A stretch of 64,000 nt of DNA from Pelagomonas calceolata (GCA_918797485.1 CAKKNE010000001.1:1612001-1676000), one strand, 5' to 3'. Counted from the stretch's first letter, positions 4,232 through 53,017 are shown. Notes: generated by a model not told the origin, from the sequence alone. Made by a program: numbers and translations.

Positions 4232-6171
4232 ATGGGCAAGGGCGGCCGGCAGGTGGTCCCGGCGCCGCCGCTCGCCGGGCCGTCCAGCCGTCCGGGCTCG
4301 GCCGTAAGTCGTCCAGGCTCTGCCACCGCCAGCCGCCCGGGCACGAAGGACCTCCGCCACCGCGCCGCCGCGCGCCGCGCAAAGGACCCGACCTCGGACA
4401 AGGAGCGGCTCCGCGCCAAGTTCATCGAGCAAGTCAAGTCGTACATCGGCACGCCCTACGCGGAGAGATATCACAAGGAAGGCGACGAATTGTACGGCCA
4501 GCCCTTGTATCTCGACTGCTGCGGGCTCTTCCGGCAAGTCTTGCGAGATATGAGAGAGGACTTCGGCTTCGATGTGGGGCCGTGGAACCAGTGCTACCTC
4601 TATGCAACCTTACCGACGAAGCTGTCGTTCAAAGACGTCAAGCCCGGTGATTTACTGTTCGTCCAGGGCCGCTACACACGTGGACGAGAGCGGCGCCAGA
4701 AAGGGGATATTGTACATGTGGAGATGTACCTCGGAGAAGATCTCGGGAGCGGTCCCGAGTCCACATTAGCATCTAGAGATCATTGGGGCTGCGTATCCAT
4801 CCAAGACTCGTTCAAGTACGCGAGCCCGTGGTACGAGATCACCGCACTCCATTGGAGAAGCTTGGACGACTGGCTCGAGGGGCGCTGCGACCCGGTCGCC
4901 ATGCCGGGATGCTTTCGGTCGCACGACCCCTACGGCGAGAAGGTCCTCGACCAGCCGTTTCGGTCCCACACGTCGTTCTTCCGGGACCCCGAGGCCTGGC
5001 GCTGGCTCGCGCAGATCGGGCTGTTCCGGGCCGCTTGCCGAGCAGCGGCGCAACGGCGACCCTTACGCGTCTGGTCGTGCGGGTGCTCTTCCGGCGAGGA
5101 GTTGTACAGTCTCGCGTTATTGTACAGGCACCGCATCGTGCCGGTCCTGGGGGCGAAGGCGCCGCGGCTCGAGTGCGTGGGGTCGGACGTCCGGCAAGAC
5201 TTGCTAGACAAGGCAGCTGACGTGCGCGAGCGGCGGTGGACGCAGGCGGCAATTCGGACGGTGCCCCTCGATATACTGAAGAAGGGCTTCCGGGCCACCG
5301 CGTCGGCGACGACGCGCGCCTATTGCTTGCGCGATTCAACGCTGGCGTCGCCTTCCGTGTGGAAATTAATCCTTCGGCCTTGACGCCATCGACGGCGTCT
5401 CAGATGTGATTTCCACGCAGGTCGTCCTTCGCGTTCAGGATCGAGGACGCGGCCTGCGACGCGCCCGACGACGAACCTGATATCTTTGACTTGGTGCTGT
5501 GCCGCTATGCAGCGTTCCTCTACTGCGACGCGCCCGGCGCCCTCCGCGCGGCGGATCGCATCTCGTCGCGCCTTGCGCCGGGCGGCGTCGTGCTGCTTGG
5601 AGCGACGGACCCCATGCCGCGCGACTGCTCGCTCGAGCCGGTGCCCAATTCGACAAACGCCTGGACCCTCGATCCCGAAGCCGACGCGGCGCTGACGAGC
5701 GGCCGGCTCGCGCAGCCGACGCTCGACGCCTACAAAGCGGCGCGGCGGCGACGGCCCGCGCGGCCGCGTCGGAGCGCCTCGGAGCCGCCGCGGCGCCCGG
5801 TGGCGCGCGAGGACAGCGTCGTGAGGCGCCGGCGCGCCGCGTCCGTCGCCGCGCGCCGGCGCGCGGCCTCGGCGGCGCAAAAGCGCGCGGCGCAACCGCC
5901 CGCCGCGCCGAAGGAATCGAAGCTTATCTGGCGCCCGTCGACGCGAGGTGCGCCCGCGCGCCCGCCGCCGCCGCCGCCGCGCCGGCGAACGTCCTCGCGC
6001 CCGTCGAAGCCGTTCCTCTCGCGCCTGGCGGACCAGGCCGAACAGCATGCGGAAAAATTGAAGCAGCTCCGCGCGAAGACGCGGAAGGAGTGGAAGGAGG
6101 CGGGGCGGCCTTGCAAGCCGAAGCGTCGGAAGCGCCGGAAACGGAAAACGGCGAAGGTCGCGCCGCTGTGA
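4232..6171 (+). CDS. NlpC/P60-like domain fused to CheR-type SAM methyltransferase (2 exons: 4232-5346, 5421-6171)
   Basis: NlpC/P60 motifs YIGTPY, LDCCGL, PGDLLF, HVEMYLG. CheR motifs TSFFRD, RVWSCGCSSGEELYSLA, GSDV, FDLVLCRY, LAPGGVVLLG. Removing GT..AG intron 5347-5420 joins the two ORFs in frame. Confidence 0.75.
5347..5420 (+). mobile_element. Introner-like intron, family A (short, degenerate)
   Basis: GT donor at 5347; inverted ends ccgtgtggaaatt (5355) / gatttccacgcag (to 5420); imperfect 8-bp duplication gtcgcctt vs gtcgtcct. Confidence 0.65.
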
Positions 6172-7321: not shown

Positions 7322-7527
7322 CTTTTTTTAGCAGTTTCTTCCTTGTCGGGCGCGTCTGCAGTGAAACCGCGAGTAGGCTCCACTTGAGTTGCTATAGCTC
7401 TGTCGCTCTCGTAACTGCCTCAGACGTTTGATTCGCGTTGCAGACGTTTGTTCTTAGCAACAGCCTTTGTGCACGGCAGCAGCGGCAGCGACTAAAGCGT
7501 TCGCCCTGTGCTGCTTGTCTAGGCATC

Positions 7528-7550
7528 CTAGTGTCTTACAGGCCGCTAGC
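7528..7550 (+). promoter_or_regulatory. CTAG-box element
   Basis: ctagtgtcttacaggccgctagc, ~207 bp upstream of the minus-strand ATG at 7321. Confidence 0.65.
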
Positions 7551-8019
7551 GATGTCGGGCCGATGCGGCTCAGATCTACCGGGAGTGGGGCGTGGCGATT
7601 GTCAAGGGTCGGGCCGAGTGTCTACTGGCTTTGTTGGAATGTACGGTGCCAAACGCGTCGCCGCGGTCCAAGGTCGCCTGCGGGAAGTCGCGGGACAAGT
7701 TGATTGAACGGGCGACGTTGCACATTGTTCCGGGGGGTTTGCCGAGGCGGTTCTGCTTAGAAGGAGGTACGCTGTTATGAAAGAAGCGGCTCGCGCCCGC
7801 CGCCGATGAATCGGCGACGTGCGTGTCTCCCTCTAGTGTCCCCCCCCCAGCCCTAGGCAGGGGCTCCGCCCACTAGTTCGACCGTAACAAGATCGGAGGG
7901 CCACTACTCCTAGCACCGTACCAAGAGATGTCTAGGCTAAAATAGAAGTACTAGTATATTAAGATAAGAAAGAAACTTCCGAAGAGAGGGGTCCCGCCAC
8001 CGAGACGAAAACGAGGCGC

Positions 8020-10695
8020 TCACCGCGCAGGAGTATCGGGCCCGCCGCGGAGCTCCGCCTTGATCGCGGCGAAGTCCGGCCGCGCGTCCGGCTCGTGGTC
8101 CCAGCACCTCCGCATCAACGCGACGAGGTCCGCGGGCGCTCCCTCGGGCACGGGCGGCCGTTGTTTCTGCAGACCCGCCTGCATCATGATCTGCATCTGG
8201 TTGAGACCACGCCAGGGGATATCTCCGGCGAGCACCTCGAAGACGACCATGCCGTACGCGTACACGTCCGTCTTCTCGGTAAAAGTATTCGATTGGAGGA
8301 GCTCGGGCGCCATGTACGCAGGCGTACCCTTCGCGTCGCCCATCGTCGACTGCGTCGCCGCCGTGTTCAGCGACTCGCTCTTCGAGAGCCCGAAGTCCGA
8401 CACCTTGCACCGCCGCGCGCCGTCGAGCAGCACGTTGAGCGACTTGAGGTCGCGGTGCTCCACGCCCTTCGAATACAAGTAGCTCATGCCCAGCGCCACG
8501 TCCAGGAGCCAGCTCCGCCGCTGCGCTTCGTCGACGGCAGTCGCGTAGTCATCAGCGGCGAGCGCCTCCCGCAGCGTTCCGCCCTCGCAGTACTCGAGGA
8601 CGAGGCCCAGGTACGACGAGTCCACTGTGATGGCGCCGATGACCGACACGATGCGCGGACTGCGAAGCTGGGTCATGATGGTAAGCTCCGTGGCAAACGC
8701 CTTCAGGTGCTTGGCGCGGTCCACCGCAAGCATGCCCACAAGGCTTGTTTTCTTCAGCACGACCGTGTCTCCCTGGTACTTGCCGCGGTGAACTTCGCCC
8801 TGCGAGCCCTTCGCGAATGGCTGCTCTTCGACCGAGTCCAGCTCGATCTCGAACTCTACCAGCGTACGCTCCTTCTCCTGCCGCGCCAGCGCCCGACCCC
8901 GCAGCTTCGAGTTCTTCGCCGCCACCATCTCTTTCACTTCGTCGAGCGACTCCTGCTGCTTCGTGTTCTGGTCGATGACCGTGCTCACGTCCGCGGCGAT
9001 CTGGTCCAGCTTCAGGCCGAGCGCCGAGAGCTCCTCGCTCTCGACGGCGCTGCCCTTCTCGATGCCGCACAGGATCGCCGCCCGCTGCGCCGCCGCCTGG
9101 TTGTTCGCGTCGACGGTCTGCTGGCCGAGGAGTTGGATCAAGCCCTCGATCTTCTCGAAGCGCTGCGCCTGGAGGGCGAGCTGCTGGAGGTCCAACGCCG
9201 AGCCGAGCTCCGTGCTGAGCTCGCAGAGCCGCTTGTCGAGGAGCCCGAACCGCCGCGCGTCGAGCGTGCCGGAGCAGAGCTTCGCGAACGCTCCCTTCTT
9301 CGAGAACTGCTGCAGGAACTTCGCAGCCTCGTCGAGCGCCTGGCCGATGGCCGTCACCGTCCGAGCGACGGCCTCGACGCGCCCGCTCGGCAGGCCCTGC
9401 GTCGCTTTGACGACGTCCTGGAGCTTTTGGGCGATTTCAAGTCCGCGGCGCTGCAGCATGACCGCGGCCTCCTTGTTGAAGCGCACCTGGCGCACCGCGA
9501 GACCGAGTTCGGCTAAGGCGTGCGCAAACGGCATCAGACACATATTGAGCGGCGGCGGCGCGGTCGCGGGGAGCGCCGTCAGAACCCCGGAGAGCGGCCC
9601 GAGGACGTCGGTCTGCGACGCCGTGAGCGCGGCGCCGACGGTGGCGCCGGCGGCGACCGCGGCCTTCGTGGACGTCGCGGGCGCGACCTTCGTGCCTCCC
9701 GCCGTCTGCGACGCTGTGCGCGCTTTGTCCGATGTGCGCCACACCTTTACGGTGCCGTCCCACGAGCCGCTCACGACGCGCACTTCGCCGGCCTGTGTCG
9801 TGTAGCACGCGACCGCGGTCACCCGCTCAGTGTGCCCTTGCAGCGTGGCGAGGAGCCGCTGCGTCTCCGGGTCCCAGATCCTTACGGTGTTGTCGACCGA
9901 ACCGCTCACGACACGCGCGGCGCTGGCCTGTGTCGTGTAGCACGCGACCGCGTTCACGTATTCAGTGTGCCCTTTCAGCGTGGCGAGGAGCTTTTGTGTT
10001 TCGGGGTCCCAGATCTTTACGGTCTTGTCCCACGAGCCGCTCACGACGCGCACGGCGCCGGCTTGTGTCGTGTAGCTCGCGACCGCGTTCACGTTGCTGG
10101 TGTGCCCTTCCAGCGTGGCGAGGAGCCGCTGCGTGTCAGGGTCCCAGACCCTTATGATGCCGTCGCGCGAGCCGCTCACGACGCGCGCGGCGCCGGCCTG
10201 TGTCGTGTAGCTCGCGACCGCGTTCACGTCGTAAGTGTGCCCTTTCAGCGTGGCGAGGAGCCGCTGCGCGTCCGGGTCCCAGATCTTTATGGTGTGATCC
10301 CGTGATCCGCTCACGACGCGCACGGCGCCGGCCTGTGTCGTGTAGCACGCGACCGCTTCCACGCTAAATTTGTGCCCTTTCAGCGTGGCGAGGAGCCGCT
10401 GCGCGTCCGGGTCCCAGATCTTTATGGTCTTGTCGTCCGAACCGCTCACGACGCGCACGGCGCCGGCCTGTGTCGTGTAGCTCGCGACCGCGTTCACGCC
10501 CGCGAGCAAATCGGTGTGCCCTTTCAGCGTGGCGAGGAGCTTTTGTGTTTCGGGGTCCCAGATCTTCAAGGTGTAGTCGTGCGAGCCGCTCACGACGCGC
10601 GGGGCGCCGGCCTGTGTCGTGTAGCACGCGACCGTTTCAGCAAAAAACTCGGTGTGCAGCGTGGCAATGAGTTTTTTGCTAGCACTACAGCCCAT
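8020..10695 (-). CDS. WD40 x7 + MLKL-like four-helix bundle + TKL-type protein kinase, predicted N-myristoylated
   Basis: Start MGCSASK (ATG 10695); seven 45-aa WD repeats; helical block LAELGLAVRQVRFNKEAA...LGSALDL; kinase motifs KGSQGEV, VVLKK, HRDLKSLN, DFG, GTPAYMAPE, DVYAYG. Confidence 0.85.
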   Translation of the reverse strand: MGCSASKKLIATLHTEFFAETVACYTTQAGAPRVVSGSHDYTLKIWDPETQKLLATLKGHTDLLAGVNAVASYTTQAGAVRVVSGSDDKTIKIWDPDAQRLLATLKGHKFSVEAVACYTTQAGAVRVVSGSRDHTIKIWDPDAQRLLATLKGHTYDVNAVASYTTQAGAARVVSGSRDGIIRVWDPDTQRLLATLEGHTSNVNAVASYTTQAGAVRVVSGSWDKTVKIWDPETQKLLATLKGHTEYVNAVACYTTQASAARVVSGSVDNTVRIWDPETQRLLATLQGHTERVTAVACYTTQAGEVRVVSGSWDGTVKVWRTSDKARTASQTAGGTKVAPATSTKAAVAAGATVGAALTASQTDVLGPLSGVLTALPATAPPPLNMCLMPFAHALAELGLAVRQVRFNKEAAVMLQRRGLEIAQKLQDVVKATQGLPSGRVEAVARTVTAIGQALDEAAKFLQQFSKKGAFAKLCSGTLDARRFGLLDKRLCELSTELGSALDLQQLALQAQRFEKIEGLIQLLGQQTVDANNQAAAQRAAILCGIEKGSAVESEELSALGLKLDQIAADVSTVIDQNTKQQESLDEVKEMVAAKNSKLRGRALARQEKERTLVEFEIELDSVEEQPFAKGSQGEVHRGKYQGDTVVLKKTSLVGMLAVDRAKHLKAFATELTIMTQLRSPRIVSVIGAITVDSSYLGLVLEYCEGGTLREALAADDYATAVDEAQRRSWLLDVALGMSYLYSKGVEHRDLKSLNVLLDGARRCKVSDFGLSKSESLNTAATQSTMGDAKGTPAYMAPELLQSNTFTEKTDVYAYGMVVFEVLAGDIPWRGLNQMQIMMQAGLQKQRPPVPEGAPADLVALMRRCWDHEPDARPDFAAIKAELRGGPDTPAR
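9735..10670 (-). repeat. 135-bp tandem WD40-coding repeat, 7 units
   Basis: ctcacgac recurs at 9770, 9905, 10040, 10175, 10310, 10445 and 10589; units nearly identical at DNA level; one unit has a 9-bp insertion. Confidence 0.95.
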
Positions 10696-11018
10696 GACCT
10701 GCCGACTGTCTAGTCCCAGCGTGCGTGCCCGCATGAACCCTGCCCGGGTTGGGCAGCCCAAAGGCCATTCATGTTCATCCAGTGGGTTGGCATCTAGGCC
10801 TAGTCCATAGCATAAAGCACAGCAGCTCGTTACGTGCGCAGGTTTTTTCGCTGAACCCGCACCTCAGCAGTAGCCTGAGTAGAGCTAGGCCGGCCTAGGC
10901 TCGATCGGGGAGTCGGGGTACGTAGTCCGAACCTCCGAACACCGTACAGAATTTGTTTCGGGGAGAAGCGCCCCATTCTACGATCTGTATATACTTCATA
11001 TAACCGGGGGGAAAGGAC

Positions 11019-14729: not shown

Positions 14730-17360
14730 CTACCGCGACGGCTGGCGCAGGGCGCACAATTCCCGCGCGAGGTCGTCGAGGGTGCCGTCGGGCGGCTGCT
14801 TCGTGGCGCTCTTCGGCCGGTATTTCGCGGCGCTGTGCGGCCGGCGCGTGCCGCTCTTCGGCCGCTGCGTGCCGCTCCGCGGCCGGTCCTTGACGCCGCT
14901 GCGGGGCCGGGGCGGCCGCGCCTTCCGCGCCGAGAACTTCTCCAAGAGCTTGGCGTGGCGCCCCGCGAGCTCCGCGACGAAGGGTTTATCGTCGCCGTCG
15001 TGCGCCCGAAACAACTCCAGGGCCCAGCCGTAGAACTTGACGGCGTTGTCGGCGCGGCCCCGGTCCTCGGCCGTGATGCCGCGCGTCCTGTACAGCAAAG
15101 CCATTTCCTCCGTGATGGCGCGCGGGTGGGCGAGCATCTTTTTTGTCACTTCGAAGCGCGTGTCGAATTCGCTTCGCGGCGTTAAATCTTCTGCAGGCGT
15201 CGGGACTTTCCCGAGCAACTTCGTCGCCGCGTCCAAGGCAGCATCGAGCTCGGCGGCAGCCGCGTCGTGCTTGTTGAGGGACGACAAGATGTCCGCCGAC
15301 TCTTGCCTGGCTCGTACGACGTCCCGCGGGTCGAGCGCGGCACGGACAGCTTCGGCCGCGGCCTCCGCCGCGCGCTCGCCGTGGCCCTGCTTCTTCAGCG
15401 CTTCGGCTTCCGCCAGTAAGAGGTCCACCATGTCGGCGCCGCCCTGGCCGGCCCGCAGCGCGTCCGTGGCCTTCCGCCGCTCGGCACTCGCGTCGCCCGT
15501 CCGCCCTAATCCCTCTAGAGCAGCGGCGTACGTCGCGCGCGCCGCCGCCGCGGCTCTTGTATCCGCGATGCACGCGCAGGCCTTGGCCGCCGGCTCCTCG
15601 GCCTCGAGGTACTTACCTCGCCCGAGGTACTTACCTTGCCGCACGAGGACCTTCGCTTTGACGGAGAAGGCCGTGGCCGTCTCCTTGGCGCGCTCGCCGC
15701 AGACCTTGTGGAGCACCTCCGCCGCGGCGTTCGCTTCGTGGTACGCGTCATTCACGAGCTTCGACCAGGTCTGGTCCCCGAGGCGCTCCAGGGCCTGGGC
15801 GCGTCTCAATAAAACGTCGGCTCTAGCAGCCCGCACGGACGCCAAGTTGGGCGACTCGTCGCCCTTGCCGTCGAAGGCTAATAGTAACTTCTCGGCCTTT
15901 GCCAGCTCCGCGAAGGCGTCGTCGTACTCGCCGCGCGCCGCGAGCAGGTGTGCCTTCGCCACATGTACGGGCCCGACGGCCTCCTCGGAGCAGATCCTGT
16001 TCTTCGCCATCATCCCGAGGAGGTTCAGCGTCTTCGTGTACACCTTCTCGCCCCCCGCGAGGTCCCCGAGGCCGACGAGGCTCCGGCCCTGCCCCAGCTT
16101 CGCGTCGATGAGGAGCATCGGCTTGTTGTTGAGTTTCCTCCCGGCGATGCGAAAGGCGTCGGCCGCGTCCTTGCACGCGCCCTGGGCTAAAAGGGCGTTG
16201 CCCCTCCGTAAGTGCGCGACGCCGACGTGCGTCAGCCTCCGCTCCTTGTGCTCCAGTTCCGCCAGCCGTTCGCAGAGCACCGCCTCCTTGTCGTGGAGGC
16301 CTAGTTGTCCGACTAACTCGGCAACGGAGGACGTGAGCGAAGCCGACGCTTGGTCGTCGGCGACCAACTCGTCGACGGCACTTAACAAAGACGAGCCGCT
16401 CCCTCTTTGAAACAACCGCTCCAGCGCTTGGGCCTGGGCCTCGATCTGCTCCCAGTCGCCCCGGAAGAACGACCGGAAGTGCTCGTAGAAGCGGTGCGAG
16501 TCCCGCTCCACCGCGAACTTCTTCAGAGGCCTCAGATGGATCTGGGCCTCGACGACGTGGGGACAGGCCTTCTTGTCCAAAGCCGAGCCAAGGGCGCTCC
16601 CCGCGACCTTCTGCGGATCCAGTCGCATCTTCACGTTGACGTCGCGGAAGCCCGCCGGCGTCGGGTATTTGAACCTATTGCTCGACTTGACGATGTCGAC
16701 GCCGTCATGATTCGATAAAGCATCGAACGCCACGCGCGCGGCTTGCGGTGTCTCCACAATGAGACACCCGCGCACAATGTCGCAGACCCACGAGATCGGG
16801 TGCGGTCGATCCCCGTAATCAAACCTAGCCTTCTCCTGGGCCCGCGCGACGCCCTTCAGCGGCGCCAACTTAAGCTCGGGCTCGCCCTCATCATGCTTCG
16901 ACGCCTCCCTTTGAATTTTGAACATGAGGTGCTCGAAGGCCGGTTTACACAACGCCGCGGCCTCGTACAACGCCTTGATGGTCTGGCAGGGGTGCCCGTC
17001 GACGCTTTGTTGAAAAGCTGTTTCGTCGTACTCCCTGTCCCCGGCCTTATTGACGGGCTCCAGCGTCTCGAGCGCGTCTCTTGAGGGCTGGCGCTCCCAT
17101 AGCGCTGCGGCGTCCTTGCGGAAGTCGTAGAACTCCTTGAGCGATTGGTAGAACGTCTCGGCGGCCTCGACGCGCGCGGCCGTCACGGCGCAGGCGCTTC
17201 GCAGCGTCGCGCGCGGCACGCGGTCTTCGGCGTCCGCGTGGAGCCTCCACTCGTTGTGGTTCTCGAGCGTCGTGCCGAGCAGCGTTTCCGCCTGGCTCCT
17301 CGGCACGAGCTCGGGCAGGTCCGTCTCCGCGGCCTCTTGCAGCGAGGCGGCCGCGCCCAT
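14730..17360 (-). CDS. RelA/SpoT-like nucleotidyltransferase domain plus TPR repeats, predicted N-myristoylated
   Basis: MGAAAS start; PLKGVARAQEK, CDIVRG, SNRFKYPTPAGFRDVN, VVEAQIHL; C-terminal half consists of TPR-like helices. Confidence 0.7.
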   Translation of the reverse strand: MGAAASLQEAAETDLPELVPRSQAETLLGTTLENHNEWRLHADAEDRVPRATLRSACAVTAARVEAAETFYQSLKEFYDFRKDAAALWERQPSRDALETLEPVNKAGDREYDETAFQQSVDGHPCQTIKALYEAAALCKPAFEHLMFKIQREASKHDEGEPELKLAPLKGVARAQEKARFDYGDRPHPISWVCDIVRGCLIVETPQAARVAFDALSNHDGVDIVKSSNRFKYPTPAGFRDVNVKMRLDPQKVAGSALGSALDKKACPHVVEAQIHLRPLKKFAVERDSHRFYEHFRSFFRGDWEQIEAQAQALERLFQRGSGSSLLSAVDELVADDQASASLTSSVAELVGQLGLHDKEAVLCERLAELEHKERRLTHVGVAHLRRGNALLAQGACKDAADAFRIAGRKLNNKPMLLIDAKLGQGRSLVGLGDLAGGEKVYTKTLNLLGMMAKNRICSEEAVGPVHVAKAHLLAARGEYDDAFAELAKAEKLLLAFDGKGDESPNLASVRAARADVLLRRAQALERLGDQTWSKLVNDAYHEANAAAEVLHKVCGERAKETATAFSVKAKVLVRQGKYLGRGKYLEAEEPAAKACACIADTRAAAAARATYAAALEGLGRTGDASAERRKATDALRAGQGGADMVDLLLAEAEALKKQGHGERAAEAAAEAVRAALDPRDVVRARQESADILSSLNKHDAAAAELDAALDAATKLLGKVPTPAEDLTPRSEFDTRFEVTKKMLAHPRAITEEMALLYRTRGITAEDRGRADNAVKFYGWALELFRAHDGDDKPFVAELAGRHAKLLEKFSARKARPPRPRSGVKDRPRSGTQRPKSGTRRPHSAAKYRPKSATKQPPDGTLDDLARELCALRQPSR

Positions 17361-47551: not shown

Positions 47552-49579
47552 ATGCGCCCTGCTGAACTGCGGTCTCCGAGCGCGCAAGGCGCCGCGCGGC
47601 GCAAGGGCACCTCCTCGCTGTGGCTGAAGCGCAACTGGGTCCTCCTCGCGCTCTTCGCCCTGGCCCTCGCCTCCGCCGGCCTCAGCATCAGACTATTTAT
47701 CGTGCCGTGCGACGAGAAGACCAGCTACGAGACGACGAATATAACTACCGTCGTCAACTTGACGACCTACGAGAACCGCACCGTGCTCGAGAATGTCACC
47801 GTCACGGAAACGGTCTTCCAACTCGAAAATATCACCACGAGCGAAAACGTAACAAGGGAAATTTCATATAATGTTACGACCGAAGTAACGACGACGCACA
47901 ACATTACGACCCAGCAGCCCGTGGACGTGGTCATCGCCCTGGACGCGTCTCATAGTGTCTCGGATACTAGCTGGGCGGCCGAGAACCAGGCCGGTCGCGA
48001 ACTACTGAGGGGGCTCCGCGACTCTTTGACGGGTGACTTACGCGCGGGCGTGGCCGTCTGGGCGAACGACGGCGCCGTGCGGCAGACTCTTACAGAAGTA
48101 GGTGAAGCCACGGTGGACGCCATGGCCGACTTTGCTCGCTTACCGTATTGCGGCGCCGTGCCGGGACCGTACTCCCCAAAAGCCGAGCAGTACTCGCAGG
48201 CCTTCTGCCAGGGCGACCCGCCGGGCGTCCAGGACGCGGACCACGCCTACGACCTGCGCCACGATTCGACGATGGGCCTCATCGGCGTGCACACGTACTA
48301 CGCGCAAGCGCTGCTGAAATGCTTCGAGGAGCTTACCTCTGATGAAGACGCGTTCAAGTTGTGTGTCGTCGTGACTGACGGCCAGATCTCGGAAGATCGG
48401 TACGCGCAGTGCGATGCTGGAATTCGCCGCTCCACGATGACCTACACGTCAGCTATGAGCGGCGACTTCTACGACGCCGGTGCGGAGCTCTACCGAGTCG
48501 ACGGAGATCCGGTCTGTACCGATGGGTTAGCAGACAACCGCTGGATCTCGCCCGCGGCGTTTGAATTCTGCCAGAGCCGTTCGATGACGGAGTGCACCGT
48601 CGATTCGATAACACAAGCCCTCAAAGCGAACGGCATCAAGGTTCTGAATGTTCTCGTGAGCGAGACCGAAGACCAGTCCTCGTACGAGCCGCGCATGAGT
48701 GAACTATCGTCGTGCGACTCGACGATGCTAGATCCGGATTGCCCGTACCTCCAGGCCCAGGCGGACTTCGCGTCGCTGGCGCTGGCGGCGTCGAACATCG
48801 CCGAGGACGTCGCCGTGCTCGTGGAGACGGTCACGACCACAGTGGAGGAGACGACCGAAGTGACCGAGGAAGTGACCGAGGTCCAGACGTCGCAGGAGGA
48901 AGTGACGCGCGAGGTCGAGGTCGAGTCCATCGAGACGCGCACGTCCGAGGAGCTAGTTACGAAAATCGAAAAAAGCACGGAGCCGACCGAGGTGACGGAA
49001 TCCAATGTCACCCAGAAAACGATCTGCACCGGAAGCCCCATCTCCTTCACGCTGCTGGTCTTGTGTCTGCCGTTCCTGGTGTACCTCTTCCTCAAGCCGT
49101 TGTTGAATTGCCTCGAGAACTGCTGCTGCCCGCGCTCTTCGGAGGACGCGGAGCCGCTGGTCATGCACGCGAACCCCGCGTTCGGTCTGGATCTGGAGGC
49201 CTCGCAAGCGCGCGCGGCCGCGCGGGCGCCGCGGCGCCGGTCGACCATCGACAAGATGTTGATGCGGGCGCGCCACCTGCGGAAGAAGAAGAACGTCGGA
49301 GACGCCGATCCCGCGGCGGCGCCGGCGCCGCTCCGGACGGCGGCGCCCGTGACCACCGAGCAACCGACGCGCCGCCGGTCCGCCGTGGCCGCGCTCGCGC
49401 GCGACGCCGAGACGGAGTGGGCGTCGGGCGTCGCCGCCGTGTATGATGGAGACGACTGGCAGGAGTCCGTGGCCGACTTCTTCATCGGGTTGGTGTTCTG
49501 CCGGTTCTGCCGATCGAGCGCGGAGCCCGCCGAGGGAAAGAACCCGTTCGAGGAGGAGAGCAAGGAGGACATCTTCTAG
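47552..49579 (+). CDS. Two-TM surface protein with VWA domain on a Thr/Val/Glu-rich stalk (paralog A, intronless)
   Basis: N-terminal TM; many N-x-T sequons; MIDAS DVVIALDASHS and VVVTDG; second TM; cytoplasmic tail. Confidence 0.85.
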   Translation: MRPAELRSPSAQGAARRKGTSSLWLKRNWVLLALFALALASAGLSIRLFIVPCDEKTSYETTNITTVVNLTTYENRTVLENVTVTETVFQLENITTSENVTREISYNVTTEVTTTHNITTQQPVDVVIALDASHSVSDTSWAAENQAGRELLRGLRDSLTGDLRAGVAVWANDGAVRQTLTEVGEATVDAMADFARLPYCGAVPGPYSPKAEQYSQAFCQGDPPGVQDADHAYDLRHDSTMGLIGVHTYYAQALLKCFEELTSDEDAFKLCVVVTDGQISEDRYAQCDAGIRRSTMTYTSAMSGDFYDAGAELYRVDGDPVCTDGLADNRWISPAAFEFCQSRSMTECTVDSITQALKANGIKVLNVLVSETEDQSSYEPRMSELSSCDSTMLDPDCPYLQAQADFASLALAASNIAEDVAVLVETVTTTVEETTEVTEEVTEVQTSQEEVTREVEVESIETRTSEELVTKIEKSTEPTEVTESNVTQKTICTGSPISFTLLVLCLPFLVYLFLKPLLNCLENCCCPRSSEDAEPLVMHANPAFGLDLEASQARAAARAPRRRSTIDKMLMRARHLRKKKNVGDADPAAAPAPLRTAAPVTTEQPTRRRSAVAALARDAETEWASGVAAVYDGDDWQESVADFFIGLVFCRFCRSSAEPAEGKNPFEEESKEDIF

Positions 49580-50625: not shown

Positions 50626-53017
50626 ATGTCGCTGCCAACCGGGCGCCGCAAGGGCACCTGCTCGCTGTGGCTGAAGCGCAACTGGGTCCTGCTGTCGCTT
50701 TTGGGCCTGGCGCTGGCCTCCGCCGCGCTGAGCGTTTTGCTCTACCTGGAACCATGCGACAAGAAGACGCAGTACGACACGCACAACACGTCGTCCGTCA
50801 TCAACGTCACGAGCTACGCGAATCGCACCGTTTTAGAGAACGTGCGGCTCCGGCGCAGAAATCTCAACAGTACCCGCGCGGCGGCCGCGGCGATGGCGTG
50901 CCCCGACGCGCCCCGTCGCAGGTTACGGTCTACGAGACGGTCATTGAGTTGGAAAACATCACGACGACGCAGAACGTTAGCTTCCTTGTTAATAACACGG
51001 TACGCTACAACGCCACGTACAACATGTCGTACGACGTGTCGCGAAATGTTAGCTATGACGTCGTTTACAATCAGACCTACAATATTACGTACAACACGAC
51101 CGTGAACGTGACCGAGTACGTCAACACGACCGTGAACGTGACCACGACGTACAACGTGAGCACGCACCAGCCCCTCGACGTGGTCCTCGCGCTCGACGCG
51201 TCGCGGTCAGTGACTCGGAGCAGGAACTCAACTCGAATGTGAATGAGACCACATTGTTCAACGCAGGTCCGTCTCGGACGCGGACTTTGTCGCGGAGAAC
51301 CGCGCCAGCCGCGAATTACTAAAGGGCCTCCGCGACTCGCTGACGGGCGACTTGCACGCGGGCGTCGCCGTCTGGGCGGTCGACGGCGTGTCGCGGCGGG
51401 ATTTGACATCAATTGCCAACGCGACGGAAATTGATGAAATGGAGGACGTCGCCCGGCTGCCCTACTGCGCGGCCGTCCCGCCGCCCTATTCGGAGCAGGC
51501 CGAGACCTACTCAAACTACTTCTGCGTGGGCGACCCGTCAGCGACTCGGAGCAGGAATGAATTTGAACTTGCCGGGGTCGCGTCGATGGCGTCAATTTGT
51601 CGTTCAACGCAGGCCGGCCGTCCAAGATGAGGACCACGCCTACGACCTGCGCCACGACGCCTCGCAAGTCTGGGGCCTCACCACGGGCACGTACTACGCC
51701 CAAGCTTTACTCAGGTGCCACGACGCGCTGATACCACAGAACGACGCCTTCCGGCTCTGCGTCGTCGTGACGGACGGCCAGATCGACGAAGATAGATACG
51801 CGCAATGTGTCGATGACGTACGTCAACCGACGATGACCTACACGGCGAATATGACTGGAGACTACTACGACGCGGGCACCGAGATTTATAAGGACGACTG
51901 CGGCTGGCACGCGAGCGTGCGGTGGATCGCGCCGGGGGCCTACGCCTTCTGCCAAAGCCATTCCATAGCGGAGTGCACCGTCGACGCCATTGCCGCTACT
52001 CTGAAGGCCAACGGCATTAAAGTCCTCAGCGTCCTCGTGAGCGAGAACAACGATTTAGAACCATACGTCGAGCGGATGGCCGCGCTCGCGTCGTGCGACG
52101 GCTACGAGGTGGCGAGCTGCCCCTACATCGTCGAGGAGGCGGACTTCGCTTCTTTAACAGACGCGGCCTCGACGATCGCCGGGGACGTCGCTTTGAACGT
52201 GGAGCTGCGCACTTCTGTTGTAGAGGAGACGATTTCCGTAGAAACGACTTTACCAATTGTCGTGCCGCGGCAGCGCCTCCATGAGGAGGAGGTGACCGAG
52301 ACCGTCACGCGGCAGGAAACGATTAGTGTGGTCGAGCCGGAGGTCCGCCAGGAGACGCGCCAGGAGATTAGTGTGTCCACTGTGATCGAGACGACGCAGG
52401 AGGAGATTACAAGGGAGGTCGAGGTCGAGTCCATTGAAACTAGAACATCGGAAGAACTCGTCACGCTCACCGAGGAGCACGTCCAACCCATGGAGATCAC
52501 GGAGGAGACCGTGACGCAAAAGACGATCTGCACCGGTTCGCCAATTTCGTTCTCGCTGTTGGTGCTGGCGTTGCCGTTGTTGGCCTACCTGTTCCTCAAA
52601 CCAATCCTGAACTGCCTCGAGAACTGCTGCTGCCCCTACTACGACGATGAGGAGGATTTGCTGGTCATGCACGCGAATCCGGCGTTCGGCATCGACCAGG
52701 AGGATTTGTCAAGGGCGCGGCCCATGCGCCGCCGGTCGACGATCGACAAGTTGCTGACGCGAGCTAAACACCTGCGGAAGAAGAAGCATGTGGGCGCGCC
52801 CCTCTCGCCCCTGCGCACGGCCTCACCCAAAAGTAATGAAGAGCCCCGCCGCCGGAGCGCCCCGTTATTGGCGAGAGACGCCGACACGGACTGGTCCTCG
52901 GGCGTCGCCGCGGTCTACGACGGCGACGACTGGCAGGAGTCCGTGGCCGACTTCGTCATCAACTTGGTGTGTTGCCGCTTCTGCCGCAAGGCCCCCGAGG
53001 AGTTCGAGGCCGTCTGA
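50626..53017 (+). CDS. Two-TM VWA stalk protein, paralog B (4 exons: 50626-50841, 50922-51205, 51267-51536, 51613-53017)
   Basis: Colinear with paralog A once three GT-AG introns are removed (ENVTV, DASRSVSD and GDPPAVQD junctions match A). Confidence 0.85.
51206..51266 (+). mobile_element. Introner-like intron, family B, copy 1
   Basis: Begins gtcagtgactcggagcaggaa and ends gttcaacgcag; same ends as 51537-51612. Confidence 0.7.
51537..51612 (+). mobile_element. Introner-like intron, family B, copy 2
   Basis: Begins gtcagcgactcggagcaggaa and ends gttcaacgcag; contains gcgtcgatggcgt. Confidence 0.7.

Follow-up and report, generated by a model that had tools for sequence, protein, structure and literature searches.

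A chimeric gene of Pelagomonas calceolata joins a hypervariable WD40 propeller to an MLKL-like bundle, brace and kinase

Fusions of an MLKL_NTD bundle to kinases and to WD40 repeats are known in grasses (PMC11297308). The wheat protein Pm13 and other MLKL-K proteins carry the bundle, a brace and a catalytically intact kinase in one chain, and make up an expanded family that arose by domain fusions; they are described there as beginning with the bundle, with no separate sensor or anchor, and as confined to Poaceae (PMC11297308). The MLKL proteins of animals and Arabidopsis (PDB 6zvo, 4btf, 6ka4) have the homologous order of bundle, brace and kinase fold, but they are pseudokinases with an N-terminal bundle that need upstream activators. 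On the sensor side, the HNWD NLRs of Podospora, HET-D and HET-E, have homogenised WD40 repeats shared among loci and under selection at the d-a loop and the b-c turn (PMC1805685, PMC4986451). Highly repetitive WD40 proteins and PkwA-type kinase-WD40 fusions (PDB 5yzv, 2ymu), reported as mostly bacterial and fungal, have near-identical blades with variable hotspots, and in the fusions a kinase, with no bundle or brace (PMC5587647). Among stramenopiles, the candidate immune receptors have shuffled LRR or TPR repeats under diversifying selection, with one repeat per exon, and brown algae are known to have shuffled repeats under selection (PMC3341825).

Here, we analyzed a stretch of 64,000 nucleotides of P. 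calceolata DNA (the window) containing a gene with the following features.

8020-10695, minus strand: coding sequence of 891 amino acids from the open reading frame call, with no intron seen, transcribed
10696-10800, minus strand: 5' leader with several upstream ATGs; RNA molecule ends at 10794 and 10800
10675-10695, minus strand: MGCSASK start, which we take to be a predicted N-myristoylation signal (G2) with possible palmitoylation (C3)
9736-10674 (aa 8-320), minus strand: seven-blade WD40 propeller of 28 strands, the ring closed by an N-terminal strand, with a hypervariable d-a loop and b-c turn
9622-9735 (aa 321-358), minus strand: linker, disordered in the predicted model, containing the fusion junction at about 9697-9738
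9562-9621 (aa 359-378), minus strand: two short helices before the bundle, from predicted models
9181-9549 (aa 383-505), minus strand: MLKL_N-like four-helix bundle, from Pfam, profile search and model, with a short helix between helices 3 and 4
8854-9180 (aa 506-614), minus strand: helical brace; its final, long helix has a coiled-coil-like pattern (by eye)
8041-8853, minus strand: kinase, best Pfam match PK_Tyr_Ser-Thr, with K648, E670, D749 of HRD, N754, D767 of DFG and E798 of APE

Whereas Pm13 starts with its bundle, the window gene and its relatives put a hypervariable WD40 propeller, or an ectodomain and a transmembrane helix, before it. Unlike animal and Arabidopsis MLKL, the gene has intact kinase motifs and an internal bundle. 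Relative to HET-D and HET-E, it has no NACHT/NB-ARC, its sensor comes first (the reversed order), its output is a kinase, its repeat is of 45 aa, and its array, with a self-identity of 83%, falls below the line for high internal conservation (85% over 100 aa; PMC4986451). It also differs from the stramenopile candidates in its intron-free WD40 array and MLKL-like bundle, with no GTPase or NB-ARC, from highly repetitive and PkwA-type WD40 proteins (PMC5587647), whose repeats are only ~35 to 50% identical to its own, and from WD40 kinases of the ROCO/LRRK type in having no ROC-COR GTPase. The window gene is neither an NLR nor an MLKL; it lacks what defines each and works like parts of both.

Transcription is on the coding strand: two raw poly(A) RNA runs from a single sample cover the gene, their first mates lying on the plus strand, at a mean depth of ~9 to 45 over the WD40 part. 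The original prediction had described an intronless, NOD-less gene starting with MGCSAS and ending in an intact kinase, and these points hold. The reading frame translates from MGCSASK, neither RNA run lists a joint with spliceosomal intron ends, no NOD domain is among the Pfam matches shown, and all the kinase residues given above are present, so that the kinase is predicted to be catalytically active. An in-frame ATG at 10734, within the transcribed leader, could add 13 aa and could mask the acylation signal; in two other loci with the same type of array, L001 and L002, the counterpart of this ATG runs into a stop, which favors the MG start. The start itself varies, being MGCCASK in the metagenomic protein P0004 and MGGGASK in L001 and L002. 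Two seawater RNA contigs follow the leader to 10792 and then continue with 85 to 94 other letters, beside a CTAG; this divergence is a candidate allelic difference, leader intron or chimera.

Sequence comparison shows the window gene to be a chimera, joined near 9697-9738, where the WD40 cassette ends in KVWRT and the juxtamembrane part of a receptor kinase starts with GGTKVAP, since its 3' part is common to transmembrane kinases and its WD40 cassette sits also on an unrelated gene. The latter is the case in L001 and L002, where the start and the array, of the same 45-aa WD40 type, are joined to another C-terminal part, and the DNA identity to the window (83 to 86%) ends at 9728. In these loci (L001, 1544-4433; L002, 786-2428) the cassette is followed by a charged helical region and then by a RelA/SpoT-like domain (Pfam E = 0.001), the match in L001 lying in a different frame. 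RelA_SpoT is among the effector domains listed for fungal NLRs (PMC4986451). The leaders of both loci show a weak likeness to that of the window gene (scores 54 and 58, versus 54 for the best of 200 shuffles), and the leader probably belongs to the transferred cassette. An assembly artefact as the source of the fusion was rejected, since the junction is bridged by contigs from four of the eight runs aligned (X12, X13, X14, and X17), with zero or one difference, and is shared by P0004.

The 3' half derives from pelagophyte single-pass receptor kinases that hold the bundle and brace between membrane and kinase. A search with the middle region gave 23 close relatives among 7996 candidates, and 96 representatives; the nearest named relatives were proteins of Aureococcus anophagefferens (55 to 73% identity), and one distant bundle came from the chrysophyte Mallomonas. 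The anchor motif ahead of the bundle is kept in 35 of the 50 close proteins examined. A transmembrane helix lies 49 to 124 aa before this anchor in 18 of the 35, following ectodomains made, for example, of DUF285 repeats, Fea1 or Cys-rich segments; WD40 repeats precede the bundle in two (the window gene and P0004), and the remaining 15 have neither; nine of these begin no more than 51 aa from the anchor. Among the short relatives, at least one is a piece of a transmembrane form (P0011/P0255), clustering with a full transmembrane protein. WD40 and transmembrane types share their sequence from GGTKVAP on, several of them to the last residues, and in a bundle tree of 22 sequences the two WD40 proteins are sisters (80/90) nested among transmembrane members. 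In the window gene, the ectodomain and transmembrane helix have thus been replaced by the WD40 cassette. The bundle, which starts at aa 383, is indeed internal, but this position, which had been called atypical, is inherited from the transmembrane family and recurs in all full-length close relatives. The kinase lobes of the relatives are mosaic in make-up, and a different kinase is present in two of those compared. RNA reads are mostly less than 95% alike to the window (1652 of 2425 in X21), mainly those over the bundle and the kinase, which shows that paralogues are expressed.

Some additional features of this family were observed. P0013, P0017, and P0256 have bundles 88 to 90% identical to that of the window gene, joined to a different kinase. 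An Ala/Gly-rich stretch directly before the bundle (window 9630-9660) is kept across the family, and distant relatives have long Ala/Gly/Val amphipathic repeats at this place. Distant bundle-brace modules without a kinase are found in P0062, P0075, P0090, P0099, P0106, P0110, and P0114, their partners being collagen-like, WWE, AAA or helicase-like parts; an MG start is seen in P0090 and P0099 as well.

The bundle had originally been compared with that of MLKL by eye, and homology to MLKL is now supported by Pfam, the family profile, the predicted model and the Foldseek ranking. Pfam MLKL_N matches aa 375-515 with E = 3.7e-5 and 23.7 bits, below the cut-off of 27, which was passed by three of the 37 relatives scanned, and Atlas ranks 1 and 3 are clusters with MLKL_N in 26% and 36% of their members. 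With a profile built from 52 proteins of the family (one of them passing MLKL_N by itself), the best seven PDB matches were all MLKL (E = 3.6e-5 to 4.7e-4), the alignments being collinear from the bundle through the brace to the kinase; the middle region as a single sequence found nothing in the PDB (best E = 0.45). The model of the isolated bundle (pLDDT 89) gave no Foldseek match at E <= 0.001, the human MLKL executioner domain (6zvo) ranking first with E = 0.15. In VIA, AtMLKL3 (Z 10.3, rmsd 3.0, 130 aa) was level with designed bundles, CAMP factor and GCP4 (Z 10.3 to 11.2), and hence the fold alone does not single out MLKL. A brace is present between bundle and kinase fold, with low confidence in the full-length model; this model accounts for all folded parts, with no NACHT/NB-ARC and no ROC-COR GTPase. 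In its short helix between helices 3 and 4 and in its extra N-terminal helices, the bundle resembles the MLKL-like domains of fungi, whose extended forms are described as not proven to kill (PMC9815663). By our own reading of the profile alignment, M385 lies about where the first MLKL residue aligns, and no 19-aa window of aa 321-434 has a hydropathy above 1.12. Among viral sequences, four pattern matches to the bundle were obtained and none was confirmed.

The WD40 array consists of seven VVSGS units spaced by 48, 45, 45, 45, 45, and 45 codons (TRF: period 135, 6.5 copies, 83% matches, score 1100). In the best of five AlphaFold models of the full-length protein (mean pLDDT 81, pTM 0.45) the array forms a closed seven-blade propeller, with the strands mostly above pLDDT 90, that matches PkwA (5yzv) with a TM of 0.91. 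The variable patches that follow GH and lie within SGSxDx agree exactly with those that had been listed from the sequence, and the expectation that they occupy one face of the propeller was confirmed, since the model places them on the d-a loop and the b-c turn, HET-E-like loops with omega > 1. The near-identity attributed to the repeats stood at four-fold sites, where 218 of 243 comparisons agree (versus ~40 to 54% expected from the codon use of the gene), but not overall, as the 21 unit pairs are only 80 to 88% identical in DNA (85 to 95% without five variable codons). In HET-E, the selected pairs 7/9 and 25/27 lie in the same two loops of the top face, each flanking a conserved site (PMC1805685), and we infer that these conserved sites correspond to the V and D of the window repeats. 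Variable hotspot residues have been reported for highly repetitive WD40 proteins generally (PMC5587647), and so the variable residues do not prove a role in immunity. Among the 120 WD40 matches listed, only P0004 and P0136 (self-identities over 100 aa of 53% and 90%) reach 70% identity, and none of three matches among shorter proteins does; the others are mostly unrelated, repetitive NLR-like proteins. A metagenome pattern scan for the repeat found two loci, neither of them the window gene.

Per-site dN/dS among repeats gave omega > 1 at five codons per repeat. In a purpose-written codon test with relative branch lengths fixed, the result of which gene conversion can inflate, M2a was favored over M1a both in the window (2dL 13.0, p = 0.0015; five of seven units) and in three loci together (2dL 53.5, p = 2e-12, omega 6.9; 15 of 20 units, the five excluded being first units or units bearing insertions). 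A posterior above 0.9 was reached only by the five top-face codons in the three-loci run and by four of them in the window-only run. All ten first and second positions of the five codons segregate, versus 4 of 19 four-fold sites (p = 5e-5). At these codons pN is 5.5 to 7.8 times the background pS, while pS is also higher there (0.40 to 0.54, versus 0.08 to 0.16) and the direct pN/pS is only 1.04 to 1.59. Adenine-directed (DGR-like) mutation was rejected by eye, since all bases vary at these codons.

One point in favor of a shuffling sensor is that P0004, of another lineage, has the same fusion with an array that differs. Behind the junction this protein is 96% identical to the window gene (230 of 240 residues in bundle and brace, 280 of 291 in the kinase), and in the propeller only 70% (224 of 320), blades 6 and 7 being best kept. 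Its repeats appear partly degenerate and have indels, and it may be a paralogue. Units of the window are as similar to those of the other WD40 locus (0.91 to 0.92) as to each other (0.90), and intermix with them on a weak tree. L001 and L002 share their upstream gene and have seven and six units with different top-face sets; their identity is 0.76 to 0.93 across start and array, and 0.96 to 1.0 downstream. WD40 pieces from the culture-labelled runs X12, X13, and X14 differ from the window at zero or one position. Seawater runs have identical and divergent pieces, plus contigs with units joined out of order, and 23 of the 38 array differences listed for seawater RNA contigs fall on variable codons; misplaced repeats or paralogues give the same pattern, and these differences were therefore not counted as allelic evidence.

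From these comparisons we see about an even chance that the protein works in the cytosol as a lipid-anchored sensor kinase that detects foreign molecules, probably those of viruses or parasites. Acylation would stand in for the lost transmembrane helix, and the propeller would sense a fast-changing ligand by a binding surface that repeat exchange and selection keep renewing. On binding its ligand, the protein would cluster through the brace and be freed from the restraint that the bundle exerts, and the kinase would then trans-autophosphorylate and signal a defense response that may end in cell death. The bundle would act mainly as a regulatory or oligomerizing unit, as proposed for wheat Pm13, and not be itself a pore. 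Such a role, in which the bundle restrains and the kinase signals, seems to fit better than a simple MLKL pore, against which the internal bundle of all full-length relatives argues. In Pm13, neither the bundle nor bundle plus brace killed, whereas brace plus kinase did, depending on catalysis (PMC11297308). The pore-forming executioner of the original prediction was not borne out, given the internal bundle, its extra N-terminal helices and the result with Pm13. The corresponding mechanism, in which self-phosphorylation or a cut in the linker frees the bundle to oligomerize and permeabilize the membrane, as in necroptosis, seems unlikely to us, even though MLKL_N homology is collinear through bundle, brace and kinase, the best Foldseek match is the MLKL executioner domain and most relatives are tethered to the membrane. 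Cleavage is left possible by the 30-aa disordered linker ahead of the bundle, and M385 and the nine relatives that begin within 51 aa of the anchor would suit a freed bundle; however, at least one short relative (P0011/P0255) is a fragment of a transmembrane form. N-terminal tags have been found to compromise MLKL killing (PMC7305131), so that a pore-forming bundle would need release, and here it lies behind 350 aa and in 18 relatives behind a transmembrane helix. The low hydropathy of aa 321-434, the resemblance of the extra helices to fungal forms with unproven killing and the failure of the Pm13 bundle to kill (PMC11297308) also weigh against it.

The lipid-anchored sensor kinase has to be compared also with explanations that involve no pathogen. 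A variable receptor for self or kin, mate, symbiont or prey, or a guard of a polymorphic host protein, that signals through the kinase would leave the same signature of selection; the known partner of HET-E is a host protein, HET-C (PMC1805685), and the relatives have diverse adhesion-like ectodomains (DUF285, Fea1, Cys-rich). We nevertheless give this explanation a low probability, because a cytosolic propeller in a single-celled alga would presumably meet non-self mainly as intracellular parasites, and other occurrences of the MLKL_N module are associated with immunity. Even less probable is a young by-product of little or no function, an amplified propeller with drifting loops fused by chance to a kinase tail. 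The swapping of kinase lobes and whole kinases in this mosaic family, the low synonymous divergence, which fits recent amplification, the indels in the P0004 repeats and the high-copy element adjoining the gene would be in line with it, but drift can give neither a pN of 5.5 to 7.8 times the background pS nor segregation at 10 of 10 first and second positions versus 4 of 19 four-fold sites (p = 5e-5). Besides, the open frame and its transcription are kept, and the fusion persists in two lineages with diverged arrays.

Our literature search, covering main texts outside subscription journals, found no description of this architecture or of an algal family of transmembrane MLKL-kinases. A term look-up in a survey of transmembrane kinases in protists gave neither MLKL nor Aureococcus (PMC10463195), and in another survey, covering 67 protists, homologues of the mammalian regulators of necroptosis were reported to be absent (PMC7539657). 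Therefore, this family of algal receptor kinases with an MLKL-like bundle is apparently undescribed. In pelagophytes, an MLKL-type module lies at the center of a family of receptor kinases whose sensors can be swapped, and one of these sensors has the diversification pattern of HET-E without any NLR scaffold. This bears on the means by which unicellular marine algae recognize viruses and set off death, and provides a natural experiment on whether the MLKL bundle was ancestrally a killer or a kinase regulator. A broader and rather doubtful extension is that picoplankton algae have a combinatorial repertoire of immune receptors, in which interchangeable sensors would act on a single MLKL-like bundle-brace-kinase unit able both to signal and to kill, and recombination would diversify the receptors against viruses. 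If true, the sensors would be surface ectodomains or lipid-anchored hypervariable propellers, and such a protein would amount to a single-chain necroptosis receptor in a unicellular stramenopile.

Several other elements were observed in the neighborhood of the gene, which is flanked by a kinesin gene on one side and a TPR gene on the other. A high-copy element at 7527-7850, 170 bp past the stop codon and with CTAG near both ends, has a summed contig depth of up to 3030, versus tens nearby (X14), and a 23-nt piece of it recurs several times within the window. At 4232-5383 (plus strand) there is an open reading frame with a weak NlpC/P60-like match joined to a CheR methyltransferase domain. Two similar, adjacent membrane-protein reading frames with Thr/Glu-rich spacers (by eye) are located at 47552-49579 and 51434-53017 (plus strand). 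On the minus strand, 14730-17360 codes for another protein with an MG start (MGAAAS), followed by a RelA/SpoT-like nucleotidyltransferase segment (by eye) and TPR-like repeats, of which Pfam returned only weak TPR matches.
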